From the NCBI GenBank assembly GCA_037305845.1, contig CP147778.1:32001-96000 (forward strand): a stretch of DNA of 64,000 bases. The letters run 5' to 3'. Shown here in pieces: positions 7,175 to 55,618 of this stretch. This stretch comes from Candidatus Freyarchaeum deiterrae (GTDB lineage Archaea; Asgardarchaeota; Jordiarchaeia; Jordiarchaeales; Jordiarchaeaceae). The translations under genes were made by a program, and so were the position numbers. Each line of letters opens with the position of its first letter. The stretch's first letter is position 1. The notes under the pieces are model-generated. The model was not told where the DNA came from and made no database searches. It saw only the letters and a program-made list of their open reading frames with translations.

Positions 7175-7987
7175 ATGGTCGCCACAGACTCCGGAAGAGT
7201 GAACCCCTTCACCGGACACCTCGTAAGAGGAGCCCTGCTGAACCTAATCAAAAACGCCGACCCCGACCTAGCCCAAAAACTCCACGAACCCCACCAGCAG
7301 AGACCCTACAGCGTCACACCCGCCGCACCCGTAGCCCACCAAAGAAACATACGCGAAAACCTCTGGTGGATACAGCCCGGAGAACACGTAAGATTCCACG
7401 CCGGATTCCTACAAGACCACATAGGAGAAAAAGCCTTCCAAAAAATCCTAGAAGGCAGGCCGGAAATAAAACTCGCAGAAACCCCCTTCACACCCGTGAG
7501 AATAGAACTCAAGAGGACAACGTACGAAGAACTGATGAAAACCGCCCAACCAGAACCCGTAATAACCATTAGGTTCCACTCACCCACCCAGCTCCCAATA
7601 ATAGGAAGAGACTTCCCCCTATTATTCCCAGACCCAAGATACGTGTACGGAAACCTAGCCCGACTATGGAACCAAAACGCACCACCACAAGTACAGGTAG
7701 ACACCCAGCAGCTACACGACTGGATAGAAAAAAACGTCTACATACGCAAATACCAACTACAAACCAGAGAGATAGACGTAGGAAAACAGGTAAAACTCGC
7801 AGGATTCACAGGAACCCTAGAATACCACCTAAACAGCACAGATGAATACGCACCTTGGATAAACATACTCACACGGTACGCAACCACAGCCAACACCGGA
7901 GCCAAAAGAACCACCGGAATGGGAGCCACACAAAAAATAGAACACACCAAACAAAACCAAAAACAAACACCAAAAGAAAATTCCTAA
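7175..7987 (+). CDS. cas6: CRISPR pre-crRNA endoribonuclease Cas6
   Basis: LHE...RPYSV, F-SPT, FPDP, GFTG and C-terminal TGAKRTTGMG G-loop; frame stays open a few codons upstream (possible ATA start at 7154). Confidence 0.92.
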   Translation: MVATDSGRVNPFTGHLVRGALLNLIKNADPDLAQKLHEPHQQRPYSVTPAAPVAHQRNIRENLWWIQPGEHVRFHAGFLQDHIGEKAFQKILEGRPEIKLAETPFTPVRIELKRTTYEELMKTAQPEPVITIRFHSPTQLPIIGRDFPLLFPDPRYVYGNLARLWNQNAPPQVQVDTQQLHDWIEKNVYIRKYQLQTREIDVGKQVKLAGFTGTLEYHLNSTDEYAPWINILTRYATTANTGAKRTTGMGATQKIEHTKQNQKQTPKENS

Positions 7988-8053: not shown

Positions 8054-8126
8054 ATGTTCGAGTGAACCCTCTCAAAAGAAGCCTTTATGAGACTCCAAAA
8101 CAAAAAATAGATAATAAAATATAACC
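8054..8126 (+). promoter_or_regulatory. CRISPR leader (homologous to main-array leader)
   Basis: TGTTCGAGTGAA..CAAAAGAAGC.TTTAT...AATATAACC matches 46712-46784. Confidence 0.85.
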
Positions 8127-8238
8127 CTTGCAAAAGAAGTTCCTCAGTAACGAGGATTGAAAGTAGCGTATTGCTCAGTTGTCGGGATCCAAATTGTCGA
8201 ACTTGCAAAAGAAGTTCCTCAGTAACGAGGATTGAAAG
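8127..8238 (+). CRISPR. Mini-array, 2 perfect repeats and 1 spacer
   Basis: Exact A-variant repeats at 8127 and 8202 with a 38-nt spacer. Confidence 0.95.
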
Positions 8239-9192: not shown

Positions 9193-9298
9193 TCTGCAAA
9201 AGAAGTTCCTCAGTAACGAGGATTGAGAGAGCGTGAGGAACAAAAATCATGTTAAATATGGCATTCTCAGACTTGTAAAAGTAGTTTCTCAGTAAGAG
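9193..9298 (+). CRISPR. Degenerate mini-array (2 repeats)
   Basis: Near-consensus repeat 9193-9229, 42-nt spacer, truncated repeat from 9272. Confidence 0.85.
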
Positions 9299-9302
9299 GT
9301 GG

Positions 9303-9460
9303 CCATGTTATATTTGAGAGTGGAGTTAGATACTCTCGTGTTCTTCCAAAGCTCACTGAACAGAATCTTACCACCTGCATGAGCCAAACATTCCAAAACA
9401 GACCTCCTACTCCTCCTTCTAAGAACGAGTCTAAAGAGTATACAGAACGCTTTTTGAAGT
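9303..9460 (-). pseudogene. wHTH fragment, paralog of the N-terminus at 17080-17239
   Basis: Translates RRSVLECLAHAGGKILFSELWKNTRVSNSTLKYN versus LRAVLGELALAGGETRFSELWKSTEIS.STLDYN. Confidence 0.7.
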
Positions 9461-10332: not shown

Positions 10333-10537
10333 TCCTTCCGTTCTCCCGAATCATAACCCAAAAATGTTTAAAGATTATTCAGCATGTTGAATTTTTACAC
10401 TTGAGATAGGGAGAAAACTGGATCACAGAGACAGAGCCAAAACAAGTTGACAGAGAGCGAGGATTTTCTGTCCAACACCGTTAAACACAGCAAAGCAACC
10501 ATCTTTATCCAAGAAGCGAATCTAAAGTTTTTATGGT

Positions 10538-10763
10538 AGGGAGGACATTCAAAGCTTATGCATGCCAAGAAGAGATTATGAACCAGTAAACTTTGACGGA
10601 GAAACGCTCACGCTCAAGGCTAAAAACGAAAACGCCCTTACCACCAGGTACGCTCTAGCCAATATACTAAGCAGACTGCTGTACAGCAAGGGAGTGCTCG
10701 TCCTGAAGTTCAAACCACTGAAAGGCCAGAACGAAACCCTAACCAACGAGATAGAGCTCCTCA
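10538..10763 (+). pseudogene. Fragment of unknown multi-copy 'gene X', fused to a CRISPR half-repeat
   Basis: Paralog of 14688-15086 up to NEIE.L, then continues as repeat sequence. Confidence 0.8.
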
Positions 10764-10849
10764 GCAACGAGGATTGAAAGCCTAATACTTGGTTCAAGTT
10801 CTAATTGTTGTCTTGCAAAAGCGGGTCCTCAAATAACGAGGATTGAAAG
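10755..10849 (+). CRISPR. Half-repeat, 31-nt spacer and degenerate repeat
   Basis: AGCTCCTCAGCAACGAGGATTGAAAG (to 10780) and a repeat at 10812-10849. Confidence 0.85.
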
Positions 10850-10961
10850 TCAGCAACAATAAATACTTAACTACATAAAGGATGTGTGTAGAGAAGGGGG
10901 TAGAATGAGCTATCACTCGAAAAAAACAAAGCAGTAGCGCAAAAGCCCACTGAGATTCTTC

Positions 10962-11327
10962 ATGGAGGAGATATGGATAAACTCCATGAGCTTTTCTTCA
11001 CCGGATTTTGTTTCACATTTTTCGGGAATCTCTCCTATGAACCATGAGCAGTATATTGAGTTCAACAGAGCGGTTATGGCAGCGTTTCCCGATTTTAGGC
11101 AAACGGTTAAGGATATGATTGTTGAGAGAGATAAAGTTATGCTTTGCATGGTAGGTAGGGATACGCGTACAGGAAATTTTCAGGATATTCCGCCTACTGG
11201 GAAACGGTTTGAAATTACGGGGATGGCTATACGCCGAATAGTAGGTGGCAAAATCATTGAAGAGTGGGCGAATCCTGATCAACTAGGTTTGATGCAGCAA
11301 ATTGGAGCAATTCCGAAACGGCGATAG
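10962..11327 (+). CDS. SnoaL-like ester cyclase (N-terminus apparently disrupted)
   Basis: AFPD, GNFQDIPPTGK, GKIIEEW...DQLGLMQQIG; the expected SLEKNKAVA start lies out of frame near 10912. Confidence 0.75.
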   Translation: MEEIWINSMSFSSPDFVSHFSGISPMNHEQYIEFNRAVMAAFPDFRQTVKDMIVERDKVMLCMVGRDTRTGNFQDIPPTGKRFEITGMAIRRIVGGKIIEEWANPDQLGLMQQIGAIPKRR

Positions 11328-11562
11328 AATATTTAGAGCTTGGTGTTGAAAGGTAGGGTGTTTATTTTTTATTTTTTTAATCTTTGAGGAAATAAGTGTG
11401 TATTCCGATTCGTCTGTTTTGGGGAGAAGTTTTTATACTTCTTTGTGTAACTTTTAGTATGTTTTTAGTGTCTGGCAGGCAAGCTGCGATTCGGGTTAGC
11501 TGTTTCGACTGTTTTAGGGTTTAGTAGTGTCGGCTTCTGTTTTTGGAGCAGTGGTCGTGTTG

Positions 11563-11955
11563 ATGAATATTATTGATAGTGTCAAAGAGCGTTTGGAAAA
11601 GAATGATAATGTTGTCTTCGCCTATGTGTATGGATCCTACGCTAGGGGAAAAGCTACTAGGTTTAGCGACTTGGATATTGCTGTTTTTTTAAGGGACACT
11701 GGTCATGAGGGGTTTAGGGAGCTGCTAGCCGAGTTGCCTGTGGATGCGGATGTTGAGTTCGATGTTAGAGTGTTGAATGATGCTCCTCCGCTCTTCAGAT
11801 ACAATGTTGTCAGGGAGGGAAAACTGTTGTTCGTCAAGGATAAAGGGATTCACGAGACCTTTGTTTACGACACTCTTGTCTCGGCGCTAGAGTTGAGAGA
11901 GGCTCTAACCAGCATGAGGGAGGAGAGGTTGAGGAGGGTTCTTGATGCTCTTTGA
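11563..11955 (+). CDS. MNT antitoxin
   Basis: YVYGSYARG...SDLDIAV. Confidence 0.9.
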   Translation: MNIIDSVKERLEKNDNVVFAYVYGSYARGKATRFSDLDIAVFLRDTGHEGFRELLAELPVDADVEFDVRVLNDAPPLFRYNVVREGKLLFVKDKGIHETFVYDTLVSALELREALTSMREERLRRVLDAL

Positions 11956-12456: not shown

Positions 12457-12568
12457 TCTGCAAAAGAAGTTCCTAAGCAGCGAGGATTGAAAGTCCAGAA
12501 TCTCGGCTACGCTGCAACTGCGGATCGTTTACTTGTAAAAGAAGTTCCTCAGTAAAGAGAATTGCATC
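12457..12568 (+). CRISPR. Degenerate mini-array (2 repeats)
   Basis: Repeats at 12457 and 12532 with a 38-nt spacer. Confidence 0.85.
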
Positions 12569-12674
12569 AGTATGGTTTACGCGTCCATCGTGCGGATACA
12601 TGAATTCTACCTGATAATATTTTTATGCAGATATGATGTTATTTACTCAGATGCGATTTTGGAGCGTGGTGTAA

Positions 12675-14687: not shown

Positions 14688-15086
14688 TTGAATGATATGA
14701 CCAGAAAGCATTTTAAAAAAATGGAGGAAGCACAATTTTCTAGCACAACAACGCTGGACTCCCTTGAATCAGTGTTCCAGAGAGAGAAAAATTGGAAACC
14801 GGTGCAAGAGGATATTCAGAGTCTATGCATACCAAGCAGCGACTACGAAATCGAAAGCTTCGACGGAGAAACCCTCACACTAAAAGCTAAAACCGAACAA
14901 GCTATCACCACCAGGTACGCCCTAGCCAATATTCTCGGCAGACTGTTGTACAGCAAGGGAGTGCTTGTCCTGAAGTTCAAACCTCTGGAAGGACTAAACG
15001 AAACCCTAACCAACGAGATAGAGTTCCTCATAAAGTATCCCAGCGAAATCGCCTCCGGAAAAATAAAAATAATAAAAGGCTGGTAA
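14688..15086 (+). CDS. Hypothetical 'gene X' (longest of four copies)
   Basis: 132 aa ORF with paralogous fragments at about 10538, 25298 and 37692. Confidence 0.55.
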   Translation: MNDMTRKHFKKMEEAQFSSTTTLDSLESVFQREKNWKPVQEDIQSLCIPSSDYEIESFDGETLTLKAKTEQAITTRYALANILGRLLYSKGVLVLKFKPLEGLNETLTNEIEFLIKYPSEIASGKIKIIKGW

Positions 15087-15315: not shown

Positions 15316-15352
15316 GTTTCGATTCCTGTCGCCGAGGAACTGCTTTTGCAAT
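15316..15352 (-). repeat. Solitary degenerate CRISPR repeat
   Basis: Reverse complement reads ATTGCAAAAGCAGTTCCTCGGCGACAGGAATCGAAAC. Confidence 0.8.
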
Positions 15353-15470: not shown

Positions 15471-15866
15471 CTATAGGTTTTCAGTATCCACATCTACGAG
15501 TTTGAGGCCTAATCCTTCAAGTCTCTTGAAATGTTTTTTGTTCAACGTCCAGAGTGGTGCAGCTTTTGAAATACAGATGGCTCCTGTCAGTAGGTCTCTT
15601 TCTTCTAAGAGTTCTCCTCTGCCGCTTAGCTCAGCCCAAATCTTGCTTGCTGTGCTTATACTCTCGTTACCTAGGGGTAGCACTTCGAATGCGTTCTCAA
15701 CAGTTCTTTTAGACTCTTCCGGGTTTACCCCTGCCCTAATTTCTCCTCTGACGTACTCGTACTCGGTTATTGCGGTTATGCAGGCATCGTAGACTTCAAC
15801 AAACTTTTCAAGTTTCCCGATTTTCTCCAAAGTAATTAAGGCATCCGTCTCAACCACAATCCTCAT
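15471..15866 (-). CDS. vapC: VapC/PIN toxin
   Basis: VVETDALI, TEYEY, RDLLTGA, TLNKKHF. Confidence 0.88.
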   Translation of the reverse strand: MRIVVETDALITLEKIGKLEKFVEVYDACITAITEYEYVRGEIRAGVNPEESKRTVENAFEVLPLGNESISTASKIWAELSGRGELLEERDLLTGAICISKAAPLWTLNKKHFKRLEGLGLKLVDVDTENL

Positions 15867-15888
15867 GGGGCACCCTCCAGTGGCTCTG

Positions 15889-16155
15889 CTAGAGTGTTTC
15901 TTCTTTTTCTGAATCTTTTAGCTTGAGGTTTTTTCTGAGGGTGCTGTGGGACTCTGAAACGTGGCTCTCAACAGTGTTAAATCTCTTCTGTAGGCTTCTC
16001 GCGGCCAACTTTCTTCGCAACCTTCTGTTTTCTTCCACAAGCTCGGCTAGAAACTTACTCCACTCTTTTCCTCCTCTTATCTTATCAAGATCTTCCTTAA
16101 CCTTAACTAAAACTGGGATTGTAGTGTATTTTCTGTCAGAACTCAAGCGGGTCAC
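15889..16155 (-). CDS. Putative VapB-type (RHH-like) antitoxin
   Basis: YTTIPV..VKEDL...WSKFL; directly upstream of vapC. Confidence 0.75.
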   Translation of the reverse strand: MTRLSSDRKYTTIPVLVKVKEDLDKIRGGKEWSKFLAELVEENRRLRRKLAARSLQKRFNTVESHVSESHSTLRKNLKLKDSEKEETL

Positions 16156-16375
16156 CGTCTAAAAATAAATTTCCATAATGATGTAATTATATTATAACTT
16201 AACAATATTATAAAATTTTGGATTGAATTTGATGTAGGACCTTTTACTTTAATACTTGGTTCCTTAACCATTTTTAGCTATCTGCGAGCATCCCACGTAA
16301 ACTTGTGCTGAACTTGAAGCGCCAAAGATTCGAAGACCAGATGTTCTCCGTGGGAAGCCTTCAAAGATCTATGAA

Positions 16376-16411
16376 CTTGCAAAAGAAGCCCCTCAGCAAC
16401 GAGATTGAAAG
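16376..16411 (+). repeat. Solitary degenerate CRISPR repeat
   Basis: CTTGCAAAAGAAGCCCCTCAGCAACGAGATTGAAAG. Confidence 0.85.
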
Positions 16412-25114: not shown

Positions 25115-25297
25115 GTATAATCTTCTCCTTTTCGCGGATAACTACCTTAACCACGTATTGGTAAAAAGATCCGAGTTAAGCAAAAATTTGAACACATTTT
25201 CTAAATTTTATTAATGGGAACAACAATATGAAAATTCCAGAGATGCAAGTGGTATAGAATTGTGCGGCCTTCTCAGAAATTACGGCTACCAGATTTA

Positions 25298-25494
25298 CAC
25301 TCAAAGCTAAAAACAAGCACTCAACACCAGACACGCACTAGCCAATATACTCAGCAGACTGCTGTACAGCAAGGGAGTGCTCGCCCTGAAGTTCAAACCA
25401 TTGGAAGGACTAAACGAAACCCTAACCAACAGAATAGAGTTCATCATAAAGTACCCCAGTGAAACCGCCTCAGGAAAAATAATAAAAGATTGAT
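25298..25494 (+). pseudogene. Decayed 'gene X' fragment
   Basis: DNA homologous to about 14877-15086 with indels. Confidence 0.8.
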
Positions 25495-37691: not shown

Positions 37692-37823
37692 CAACATTCT
37701 CGGTAGACTGCTCTACAGCAAATGAGTACTCGTCCCAAAATTCAAACCACTGGAAAACCAGAACGAAAACCTAACCAACGAGATAGAGTTTCTAATAAAA
37801 TACCCCAGAGAAACCGCATCAGG
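37692..37823 (+). pseudogene. Decayed 'gene X' fragment
   Basis: NILGRLLYSK*VLVPKFKPLENQNENLTNEIEFLIKYP. Confidence 0.75.
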
Positions 37824-39479: not shown

Positions 39480-39513
39480 CTTTCAACCCTCGTTACTGAG
39501 GAGCTTCTTTTGA
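39480..39513 (-). repeat. Solitary CRISPR repeat
   Basis: Reverse complement reads TCAAAAGAAGCTCCTCAGTAACGAGGGTTGAAAG. Confidence 0.88.
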
Positions 39514-39548: not shown

Positions 39549-39810
39549 CTACGTCAAAATCTTTAAACCAAACTCTGAAAAACCTTTCAAAATGCTTTAA
39601 ATAAAGTGTGTAGAATTAGGTCTTTTGCGATTGCAATTGATGCGATTAGAAAATTTGCGTCTTCAATAGGTTCACCTTTTCTTTTAACGTGTTGTAAAGC
39701 TTACAATAAACCAATAGGAATATTGTGCAAAGGTAGCTATTTCCTAATAACTCAAGCTTTTTGGTTCTTGAGTATTCCACAAGAACGGAGGTGTCAACAA
39801 GTACTCTCTC
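39549..39810 (-). pseudogene. VapC/PIN pseudogene
   Basis: RVLVDTSVLV...LYNTLKEK / GEPIEDA..IASIAI / KHFERF in shifting frames. Confidence 0.75.
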
Positions 39811-39994
39811 TGAACTTGAAGGACTTCCTGAAGCTTTCGGCTTCCTTTTTGAGCTCATCCCAATCGACGCCCTCCACCAGCTCATAGAATTCTTTAAACT
39901 TCTTCTTTTTCTTTAGGTAATTCCGAATTAGCTCCTTAATCTCTTCTTCGGTAACAACATCCGGAACATCAATAACAATTTTTATCCGATTCAC
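39794..39994 (-). CDS. Putative antitoxin
   Basis: 66 aa gene overlapping the PIN remnant. Confidence 0.65.
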   Translation of the reverse strand: MNRIKIVIDVPDVVTEEEIKELIRNYLKKKKKFKEFYELVEGVDWDELKKEAESFRKSFKFRESTC

Positions 39995-40011
39995 ACTCGT
40001 CTAGGAAACTT

Positions 40012-46675: not shown

Positions 46676-46784
46676 CTCGAACACATTTATAAAGAGCATG
46701 CATTTTTCCTAGTGTTCGAGTGAAACCTCCCAAAAGAAGCTTTTATAAGCCTATAAACCCAAAAATAAGTAATATAATATAACC
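46676..46784 (+). promoter_or_regulatory. Main CRISPR leader
   Basis: AT-rich; BRE/TATA-like CAAAAGAAGCTTTTATAA about 45 bp before repeat 1; 9-bp inverted repeat CTCGAACAC/GTGTTCGAG. Confidence 0.85.
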
Positions 46785-49700: not shown

Positions 49701-52630
49701 AAGAAGTTCCTCAGTAACGAGGATTGAAAGTTTATGTTGGGAATATTCACTCGTAAACCTAAAAGAAACTTGCAAAAGAAGTTCCTCAGTAACGAGGATT
49801 GAAAGACATGTCACCGGAACAGTACGCCGGAAAAGAGAGCGCTTGCAAAAGAAGTTCCTCAGTAACGAGGATTGAAAGTCCTTCTCCTTTTCTGGGTCCT
49901 TGTACATTTTCTTGCTTGCAAAAGAAGTTCCTCAGTAACGAGGATTGAAAGGGTATGATTGTGGAGCGGGTTATGGATGAGCGGGGACTTGCAAAAGAAG
50001 TTCCTCAGTAACGAGGATTGAAAGCTGTATAGAAGTAGCTTGTATATTGCGCCACATACCTGAACTTGCAAAAGAAGTTCCTCAGTAACGAGGATTGAAA
50101 GCAAAATAGGCGCCCTAAAATCACAACTCAGTTTTTAACTTGCAAAAGAAGTTCCTCAGTAACGAGGATTGAAAGTTAATTCGCTTAGTTGACAGATATA
50201 GACGTGTTTATCTTGCAAAAGAAGTTCCTCAGTAACGAGGATTGAAAGGGTATTCCAACCGCATATACTATCTCCGTTAAGTTCACTTGCAAAAGAAGTT
50301 CCTCAGTAACGAGGATTGAAAGTAACCAAGAATGTTCCGGTGAGTGATATTCAATCATTCTTGCAAAAGAAGTTCCTCAGTAACGAGGATTGAAAGTACA
50401 CGTACCAAGTGGAACCCAGAAACAGGAGCAGAAGCTTGCAAAAGAAGTTCCTCAGTAACGAGGATTGAAAGGGATTAGCTCCGCTAAGAGTATCTGAGTA
50501 TTACACACCACTTGCAAAAGAAGTTCCTCAGTAACGAGGATTGAAAGTGTTCCATTAAAATCACCAAGAATAAAAGAACAAATAGCTTGCAAAAGAAGTT
50601 CCTCAGTAACGAGGATTGAAAGTAATTTCTTTCATATTTTTCACCATTTTCTTTTTTTAACTTGCAAAAGAAGTTCCTCAGTAACGAGGATTGAAAGAGA
50701 AACGAGTTGAACAGATCGCAACTAGAAGCCCTCACTTGCAAAAGAAGTTCCTCAGTAACGAGGATTGAAAGTTCTTTTTGAAAAATATCCCACGAATCTT
50801 TATCTGATGCTTGCAAAAGAAGTTCCTCAGTAACGAGGATTGAAAGTGTTGTTTCTCTAAGTATTCTATACGGTTTTTTAATCTTGCAAAAGAAGTTCCT
50901 CAGTAACGAGGATTGAAAGTGTTATGCTGATTTCCTTTATATGGCAACAAAAATAGCTTGCAAAAGAAGTTCCTCAGTAACGAGGATTGAAAGAATAGGT
51001 CATGGGTACACCTTAAATAAAGGTGTACTCTTCTTGCAAAAGAAGTTCCTCAGTAACGAGGATTGAAAGACTACTAGACCACGAAATAATCTACAAGGAC
51101 AAACAACTTGCAAAAGAAGTTCCTCAGTAACGAGGATTGAAAGAAAGAAATTGATGTGAAGGAAAGAATCAAGGAATGCACTTGCAAAAGAAGTTCCTCA
51201 GTAACGAGGATTGAAAGGTTTGGGGGCTGATTAATACCGCAACATTTCTAGTGGGCTTGCAAAAGAAGTTCCTCAGTAACGAGGATTGAAAGGATTCTTG
51301 GACATTCCAAGCGGGATGGAACATGACAAGCTCTTGCAAAAGAAGTTCCTCAGTAACGAGGATTGAAAGATGCCTATAATTACGAAGACTAAAATAAGAC
51401 TTAAGATACTTGCAAAAGAAGTTCCTCAGTAACGAGGATTGAAAGATTTACTTCTGGTTCTTTGTAGTAGGTTACAGAGTTGTACTTGCAAAAGCAGTTC
51501 CTCAGTAACGAGGATTGAAAGTAGTAAATTGGTTTTTTCTCAATCTCATTATATTTCAACTTGCAAAAGAAGTTCCTCAGTAACGAGGATTGAAAGACTC
51601 CGTGCCCTATTCCCCACGGTGGATCCGTTGCACAACTTGCAAAAGAAGTTCCTCAGTAACGAGGATTGAAAGACGGTGAACGGTCACAGTCCCTCGACCG
51701 CTGTTCAGGTCTTGCAAAAGAAGTTCCTCAGTAACGAGGATTGAAAGCATAAGACTACCCATAAGATTCTCGCTAACACTAGACACTTGCAAAAGAAGTT
51801 CCTCAGTAACGAGGATTGAAAGTAATGGACCAATCTGTTCTTTGAGAGAATTTAGTAACTTGCAAAAGAAGTTCCTCAGTAACGAGGATTGAAAGCTTTT
51901 CTTTCACGAAACGTACTTGATTCTACGTAATAGCTTGCAAAAGAAGTTCCTCAGTAACGAGGATTGAAAGTTGCGCTTTTAATGCAGGATAAAAGGGATT
52001 TGACTACTTGCAAAAGAAGTTCCTCAGTAACGAGGATTGAAAGGATCCTCCGTGACTATGTGTTTGAATTTTTCTTTCTGCCTTGCAAAAGAAGTTCCTC
52101 AGTAACGAGGATTGAAAGGTTAAATGCTCTTGACGATTCATCGTGGGGTGCTTGGGCTTGCAAAAGAAGTTCCTCAGTAACGAGGATTGAAAGTCAAGTC
52201 AATCTTGGAGCTTCAAGGATTTGAATTACTCTTGCAAAAGAAGTTCCTCAGTAACGAGGATTGAAAGTCAGGGTTATCGAACTGAAGGTCCTTGCAGACC
52301 TCCTTGCAAAAGAAGTTCCTCAGTAACGAGGATTGAAAGTCCAACTGCGGCAGCTTGTTCGTGGCCATAATTATTTCTTGCAAAAGAAGTTCCTCAGTAA
52401 CGAGGATTGAAAGATTTTCTTCGTTATGCAGTTGAAGAACATGGAGTGAGTCTTGCAAAAGAAGTTCCTCAGTAACGAGGATTGAAAGTGTACCTATTAC
52501 GCGTGGGAGGGATGCTTTTTGGGACTTGCAAAAGAAGTTCCTCAGTAACGAGGATTGAAAGTATATTTTCATCCTCCTATTCGGTTCTTAAATATTCGCA
52601 CTTGCAAAAGAAGTTCCTCAGAAACGAGGA
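46785..52630 (+). CRISPR. CRISPR array 2 (about 79 repeats, 78 spacers)
   Basis: CTTGCAAAAGAAGTTCCTCAGTAACGAGGATTGAAAG with about 74-bp period; terminal repeat at 52601 is degenerate. Confidence 0.99.
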
Positions 52631-52647
52631 AGTTGATAATATCGAAG

Positions 52648-53404: not shown

Positions 53405-53547
53405 CTCGTAATCATTCTATGGTAATAGATTCGTTACATTTAAGGTTTCGTTTATTATGAAAAATTTTTGAGTGGAGCTCGTTTAGGGTGGGTTATGGTG
53501 GTTTTAGTATTTTCTGTGCTTTCTTCTCCATTAGTTTTTTGGCGTTG

Positions 53548-53612
53548 ATGACTGTTATTAATCGAGTTAAAGAGCGTTTGGAAGAGAATGATAATGTTGT
53601 CTTTGCCTATAG
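53548..53612 (+). pseudogene. 5' fragment of an MNT paralog of 11563-11955
   Basis: AAAGAGCGTTTGGAA.AGAATGATAATGTTGTCTT.GCCTAT shared with the 11563 gene. Confidence 0.7.
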
Positions 53613-54491: not shown

Positions 54492-54554
54492 CTTAACTTA
54501 GTTTGGGGCTACCTAGGGTAATAAGTTCTGCGAGGACTGCTGCTTCAATCTCAA

Positions 54555-54591
54555 CTTGCAAAAGAAGTTCCTCAGAAACGAGGATTGCATC
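54555..54591 (+). repeat. Solitary CRISPR repeat with conserved trailer
   Basis: CTTGCAAAAGAAGTTCCTCAGAAACGAGGATTGCATC; trailer is duplicated after 12532. Confidence 0.9.
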
Positions 54592-54692
54592 ATTATGGTT
54601 TACATGTCCATAGTGCGGATACATGAAGTCTATGAGATAATATTTTTATGCAGATATAAAGGTATGAAAATTCCTAGAGATATGATATGGTT

Positions 54693-55375: not shown

Positions 55376-55548
55376 CTCGTAAAAACAGTTCATCAGAAAC
55401 AAATATTGGAAGTTTTGTGTATTTTATACAAACATTTAAATATTAATTTCTTACTAAAGGAGTTCCTCAGAAACGAGGATTGAAAGTTCTATATTGTCCT
55501 CTTAACTTTTTTTGAGCCTTAATTGCAAAAGAAGTTTCTCAGCAACTA
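55376..55548 (+). CRISPR. Degenerate mini-array (3 repeats)
   Basis: Repeats at 55376 (weak), 55450 and 55522 (partial) with 72-74 bp spacing. Confidence 0.75.
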
Positions 55549-55618
55549 GTTAAATATCAACCATTTTGCTCTCTTTTTAGCTCTAAGACATTAGAGTCTA
55601 ACAGAACTTGCTTTATCT

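Follow-up and report, generated by a model that had tools for sequence, protein, structure and literature searches.

How does a protein-coding sequence come to continue directly into the 3′ part of a CRISPR repeat? The question is raised by the DNA at 10538-10849 of the window analyzed here, a stretch of 64,000 nt that corresponds to positions 32001-96000 of its contig (G000:C1). That contig is the entire genome (3,576,204 bp, 40.7% G+C) of an archaeon assigned by GTDB to the genus Jordarchaeum (Freyarchaeia), and among genomes with the same genes, the nearest is that of Ca. Jordarchaeum madagascariense EB_bin_7. An earlier note had described the locus as a coding sequence fused to a CRISPR half-repeat at a 9-nt microhomology and had read it as a fossil crossover.

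The genome carries a single family of CRISPR repeats, 37 nt long, with the canonical sequence CTTGCAAAAGAAGTTCCTCAGTAACGAGGATTGAAAG and the 3′ end ATTGAAAG, whose members make up three large arrays, with 65, 78, and 79 repeats. Between the first and second of the large arrays sits an island that contains type III cas genes (an HD-Cas10-like gene and RAMPs), a Cas6 encoded at 7175-7987, and many toxin-antitoxin (TA) pairs, both PIN/VapC proteins with AbrB/MazE-type or wHTH partners and MNT/HEPN pairs. One-spacer mini-arrays and orphan repeats are scattered through the island, starting at the following positions (forward strand unless marked):

5397, 5475, 8127, 8202, 9193, 9272, 12457, and 12532: orphan or mini-array repeats in the first part of the island
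15316 (reverse strand), 16376, 39480 (reverse strand), 52601, 54555, 55450, 55522, 57729, 57804, and 57880: orphan or mini-array repeats in the remainder of the island

When the spacers were compared with their own genome, no self-targets were found, the matches being 12 to 17 nt long, which is the level of chance. The island also contains internal duplications, namely, 8055-8126 and 46713-46784 (a copy of the leader before the 2-repeat array at 8127), 12531-12642 and 54554-54665 (a repeat-plus-trailer unit), and 11559-11625 and 53544-53610 (part of an MNT gene).

The coding partner in the fusion is a copy of a gene, here called X, that is present in four copies in the genome, all of them inside the window and none in the rest of the genome:

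14697-15086, forward strand: gene X, intact, 129 aa from its ATG, the ORF being open from TTG 14688
10538-10763, forward strand: X fragment fused to the repeat, codons 40 to 114 of 129 to 132, with TAG at 10538-10540 closing the frame upstream
25297-25485, forward strand: X fragment, codons 70 to 126, with one stop and the normal X 3′ end kept
37692-37823, forward strand: X fragment, codons about 76 to 128, with one stop and the normal X 3′ end kept

The fused fragment is thus missing the first 39 and the last 18 codons of the gene. Between 10541-10763 and 14808-15030, the identity is 83% at the nucleotide level and 80% at the amino acid level, in frame and without stops, and the divergence of the fragment from each of the other copies is 14 to 20%. 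Its private changes (3/2/6 by codon position, 3 synonymous and 8 nonsynonymous) do not date the fusion, as they are indistinguishable from those of the intact copies. Gene X is confined to Jordarchaeia/Freyarchaeia, with ten proteins, several of them truncated, in 5.8 billion clusters; its product has no sequence match in Pfam, PADLOC, or the PDB, and metagenome scans with the X alignment gave no match. An AlphaFold model of the product of 14697-15086 is of low confidence (pLDDT of 61), and its Foldseek matches are weak (E of 7e-3 or weaker, TM of about 0.3), nearly all of them Pol-beta-type nucleotidyltransferases, including OAS, Pol mu, small alarmone synthetases, and TglT. X might on this modeling be a minimal or degenerate MNT-like protein, which we treat as a lead at most and do not rely on. 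Two side observations concern the surroundings and relatives of the gene. An inverted degenerate repeat, TTGCAAAAGCAGTTCCTCGGCGACAGGAATCGAAAC, lies at 15316-15352 on the reverse strand, 230 bp downstream of intact X, and a 21,487-bp contig of Ca. Jordarchaeum sp. (P0010) encodes a 107-aa X homologue that ends in ...ELNENLTN, five codons short of the junction site, an end that could represent another truncation or junction.

At the junction itself, the following elements can be told apart:

10755-10763, forward strand: junction tract AGCTCCTCA, equivalent to repeat positions 12 to 20 and to X codons E-(F/L)-L and assignable to either parent
10755-10780, forward strand: 5′-truncated CRISPR repeat, positions 12 to 37 (nhmmer E = 5e-7, profile from island repeats)
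10781-10811, forward strand: single spacer; at 31 nt, it is shorter than those in the large arrays and in the other mini-arrays (35 to 41 nt)
10812-10849, forward strand: degenerate terminal repeat of 38 nt, with four substitutions and a 1-nt insertion, stem intact
10562-10777, forward strand: residual 71-codon ORF in the X frame, ending in ...EIELLSNED, its stop being the TGA inside the repeat end ATTGAAAG

The fusion of a coding sequence to a CRISPR half-repeat, as the earlier note had it, is real: homology to X runs to 10763, and repeat positions 12 to 37 occupy 10755-10780. Alignment of 10538-10849 with intact X and with the repeat left both parents recognizable and placed the switch between them in the tract that they share. 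X homology ends at ...GAGCTCCTCA, and from AGCTCCTCA on, the sequence is that of repeat positions 12 to 37; the alignments of all four X copies put the break in homology exactly at the A of CCTCA. The other X copies continue, in both the four-way and the seven-way alignment, as ...GAGTTC(C/A)T(C/T)ATAAAGTA..., and the copy at 10541 reads GAGCTCCTCA and then GCAACGAGGATTGAAAG; through the repeat end at 10780, the fused copy reads GAGATAGAGCTCCTCAGCAACGAGGATTGAAAG.

The truncated repeat is identical to positions 12 to 37 of the repeat consensus at 24 of 26 nucleotides and is not full length, positions 1 to 11 having been replaced by X coding sequence. It retains the 5-bp hairpin TCCTC/GAGGA and the 8-nt 3′ handle (the ATTGAAAG end), and its hairpin, at −6.6 kcal/mol, has the same fold and energy as that of the canonical repeat. 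The second repeat opens with the canonical CTTGCAAAAG and contains no X sequence there. The X piece is cut on its 5′ side too (at codon 40), where no partner can be identified, and this additional cut implies that more than one event shaped the locus. A decayed repeat at GAGGA 10541, which would have made the junction a double one, was considered and rejected, as the alignment score is the genome-wide median for GAGGA sites. Sixty-eight nucleotides upstream of the X fragment, 10434-10470 has an in-register match to the repeat at 20 of 37 positions (CAAAACAAGTT ... CGAGGATT blocks); judged on this resemblance, it could be a decayed repeat, a match of this quality not being significant (0.15 expected per 400 nt).

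How much sequence did the two parents share? Intact X and the canonical repeat have AGTTCCTCA in common, at 15022-15030 in the gene (where the surrounding sequence is GAGATAGAGTTCCTCA, then TAAAGTA) and at positions 12 to 20 in the repeat, where it spans the 5′ arm of the TCCTC/GAGGA hairpin plus one loop base. The 9-nt microhomology proposed earlier therefore exists between the canonical parents, but in place the tract, AGCTCCTCA, matches each parent at only 8 of 9 positions. In addition, the loop of the truncated repeat is GCAAC, not GTAAC (T22C). Both deviations are natural repeat variants, the tract variant AAGCTCCTCAG occurring in the orphan repeat at 39480 on the reverse strand and the GCAAC loop occurring in the orphan repeats at 16376 and at J. 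madagascariense L019, so the partner was probably an orphan or trailer repeat that had already diverged. On the X side, the full 9-mer is present in two of the six other copies (the intact copy in this genome and one J. madagascariense copy), and the remaining four read TTCATCA, TTCATTA, or TTTCTAA at the tract, which puts the parental microhomology somewhere in the range of 6 to 9 nt. The shared tract at the switch is far from chance. When all X-by-repeat breakpoint pairs were enumerated, an ambiguous tract of at least 9 nt arose under random breakpoints with p = 7e-4, and one of at least 6 nt arose with p = 2.2e-3. The switch falls inside this tract, and no filler bases were inserted.

Taken together, these features are probably the mark of a one-sided deletion, by slippage or by microhomology-mediated end joining, that joined an X paralogue to a CRISPR repeat. 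An X paralogue would formerly have been followed by a CRISPR repeat in the same orientation, which was an orphan or belonged to the trailer end of an array. In a single illegitimate recombination, whether by replication slippage or, after a break, by microhomology-mediated end joining, AG(T/C)TCCTCA in X would have paired with the identical tract at repeat positions 12 to 20, and the DNA between them would have been deleted, including the last 18 X codons, intergenic DNA or a leader, upstream repeats and spacers if there were any, and the first 11 nt of the repeat. What remained would have been a dead X fragment, its frame stopped by the TGA in the repeat, followed by a one-spacer remnant array. 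A normal 3′ end is found in the six other X copies, of which three are from another species, and the fused state is therefore the derived one. Terminal repeats of CRISPR arrays are degenerate, and the degenerate 38-nt second repeat, together with the lack of a leader, suggests that the unit now present was left from the trailer end of an array that had been longer, each repeat of which would have offered the same target.

Such a deletion calls for partners in cis. J. madagascariense contig DXJA01000213 carries an intact X with GAGTTCCTCATAAAG, the 9-mer included, and a co-oriented orphan repeat 314 bp downstream, a layout that is a plausible analogue of the precursor; on two other contigs of that species, X is preceded by a co-oriented repeat at a distance of 36 or 231 bp. 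More generally, all three J. madagascariense loci (L018 to L020, on DXJA01000213, DXJA01000517, and DXJA01000451) have an intact X with a co-oriented orphan repeat 36 to 1,237 bp upstream, and a repeat downstream (at 314 bp) is found only beside the L018 copy. From these arrangements, X appears to behave as a cassette bounded by repeats. The flanks of the fused locus (10380-10537 and 10850-11400) had no match in five other Jordarchaeum genomes, and the upstream HTH/PIN module is the sole part with a homologue in the genus (G001, 86%), in a different context. No undeleted orthologous locus was thus found among these genomes, and the cis geometry is accordingly something that we infer.

The reading of the junction as a fossil crossover at the 5′ arm of the repeat palindrome is borne out as to place, the switch lying in the shared tract at that arm, but not as to process, as a crossover should have a reciprocal product. 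A whole-genome scan (3.58 Mb) for the 5′ half of a repeat running into the 3′ end of X found none, only ordinary degenerate terminal repeats, and in the lack of a reciprocal product the junction fits a one-sided deletion better than it fits reciprocal recombination. In this genome, the junction is unique. Of the 24 further orphan repeats scored in the island, all retain the 5′ half, six being decayed at the 3′ end. The rest of the genome has 17 isolated matches to the 3′ 15-mer (at most 2 mismatches), the level of shuffled-pattern controls (8 to 28), and a metagenome scan for the exact junction pattern gave no match. As a separate observation, the second or terminal repeats at 9272-9308, 12532-12568, 52601-52637, 54555-54591, and 55522-55558 keep the 5′ half and hairpin and have a decayed 3′ end (e.g., ...ATTGCATC), and the first repeats of the island mini-arrays vary instead in their first 2 to 4 nt.

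A search of other genomes for junctions at the same repeat position, as the earlier note had proposed, turned up a single comparable site. Four other Jordarchaeum genomes were examined at 26 orphan-repeat sites, where most repeats are full length or diffusely degenerate; the exception, at G005:C165:2118-2141 on the reverse strand (L037), consists of 13 unrelated bases and then TTCCTCAGTAACGAGGATTGAAAA, a 5′-truncated repeat with nearly the same boundary (position 13/14). It lies directly upstream of a TA cassette 88% identical to 39715-40001 of the present genome, where there is no repeat at the corresponding spot. The broader proposal that CRISPR repeats are recombination substrates goes beyond this evidence, which amounts to one event by way of a 9-mer that X carried by accident.

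Could the adjacency be fortuitous, or could it have arisen in assembly or by the mixing of strains, an X fragment and an array tail having been joined as a chimera? The genome is metagenome derived, and CRISPR regions are difficult to assemble, so the question is a fair one, but we consider either origin very improbable. Chance is hard to square with the shared tract (p = 7e-4), and nine shared bases are too few to mislead an assembler. The 35 21-mers that span the junction occur nowhere else in the genome, 10500-10900 shares at most 31 consecutive nucleotides with another locus, the spacer and second repeat are unique, and the X fragment is diverged from every other copy to the extent given above. 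The whole unit (about 200 bp) would also fit one 150- to 250-bp read. The Freyarchaeia genome, from wetland soil, is described as complete and manually curated and was built from Illumina reads, its overall topology having been validated against independent Nanopore and PacBio assemblies (PMC11291895), and read coverage is reported to be even (PMC11529989). Judged on the sequence, an assembly error is thus unlikely. A genuine event of another kind would be an ectopic crossover or gene conversion between loci, in which an X paralogue recombined with a repeat of a distant array and the array tail was moved beside X. Cassettes and orphan repeats of this mosaic island have been shuffled between species, and three arrays with over 220 repeats would have supplied many targets. 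Nevertheless, the reciprocal product is absent from the genome, nine nucleotides is far below the requirement of homologous recombination, and the layout of X followed by a repeat in cis is present in the sister species, so we regard such an exchange as unlikely.

A third alternative concerns not how the junction arose but why its boundary lies at the base of the hairpin. The retained part (hairpin and 8-nt handle, 31-nt spacer, and second repeat) might be functional as a single-guide ectopic mini-array of the CreA or CreR kind, selection having kept what a mature crRNA needs and so explaining the boundary. The half-repeat does retain the canonical hairpin and the ATTGAAAG end, in mini-arrays elsewhere in the island, the first repeat retains its 3′ part and the second has lost its 3′ end, another 5′-truncated repeat, starting TTCCTC, lies just upstream of the TA cassette in G005, and regulatory ectopic degenerate repeats are known (PMC9458426). 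The decay pattern of the mini-arrays fits, as far as such a comparison goes, the keeping of only those parts needed by a single mature crRNA. Against a function stand a spacer for which no convincing target was found (best matches of 13 to 14 nt, at the genome-wide chance level) that relatives do not conserve, no identifiable promoter or leader, and the absence from the truncated repeat of nucleotides 2 to 8, which are the nucleotides mainly bound by some Cas6 enzymes, e.g., that of P. furiosus (PMC9458426). Spacer positions 3 to 15 do match 13 nt at 16250-16262, inside the island and roughly 100 bp upstream of the PIN operon that occupies 15471-16155 on the reverse strand, at a genome-wide E of about 0.8, which is the level of chance. 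We therefore find a functional remnant improbable, and we hold the same low expectation for the more general idea of a non-neutral truncation, in which the hairpin-plus-handle half of a repeat would be the minimal functional unit of the lineage and the mini-arrays would be CreA- or CreR-like regulators. If that idea were true, the half-repeat could be a Cas6 site that gives a single guide or tags a downstream transcript, boundaries at the hairpin base would recur (as here and in G005:C165) through hairpin-directed breakage or selection on the retained part, and the island mini-arrays would regulate its TA and cas cassettes. The microhomology-mediated deletion that we favor would instead have left a scar that is presumably neutral.

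The scar is real but ordinary, an example of a known process and not a new mechanism or a new system. Its value lies in showing, at base resolution, a CRISPR repeat that has recombined illegitimately with ordinary coding DNA. The locus illustrates one way for the arrays of archaeal defense islands to be reduced to orphan repeats and mini-arrays, and it documents, in a single event, microhomology-mediated rearrangement in an Asgard archaeon, one for which we know of no genetics.

How does the junction compare with known systems? Formation of a neo-CRISPR by off-target spacer integration also places repeat-like sequence next to non-CRISPR DNA, but it leaves a copy of the target site on either side of the new spacer; we considered ectopic integration as an origin for this locus and rejected it, as the canonical 5′ half of the second repeat is not derived from X. 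With the CreA element of CreTA (PMC9458426), the locus shares two diverged repeats around one short spacer-like sequence in a cas/TA island, 10755-10849 lying among type III cas genes, Cas6, and TA pairs, and in both cases, the first repeat is the more altered one. In contrast to CreA, no partial target beside a PAM and no small toxin gene associated with the locus were found, and its first repeat was cleanly truncated by fusion rather than degenerated by point changes. With repeat-mediated spacer loss, it shares the involvement of repeats in a deletion that left an array-tail remnant with a degenerate last repeat and no leader. Ordinary spacer loss, however, is between repeat and repeat and leaves whole repeats, whereas here, a repeat was joined to a coding sequence and was left 5′ truncated. 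With microhomology-mediated deletion (slippage or microhomology-mediated end joining), there are in common two identifiable parents, a switch within a 6- to 9-nt tract, no filler, and no reciprocal product. The event here is read from its scar rather than observed, and what sets it apart from such deletions is the identity of one partner, a CRISPR repeat, and the position of the tract at the 5′ arm of the hairpin of that repeat.
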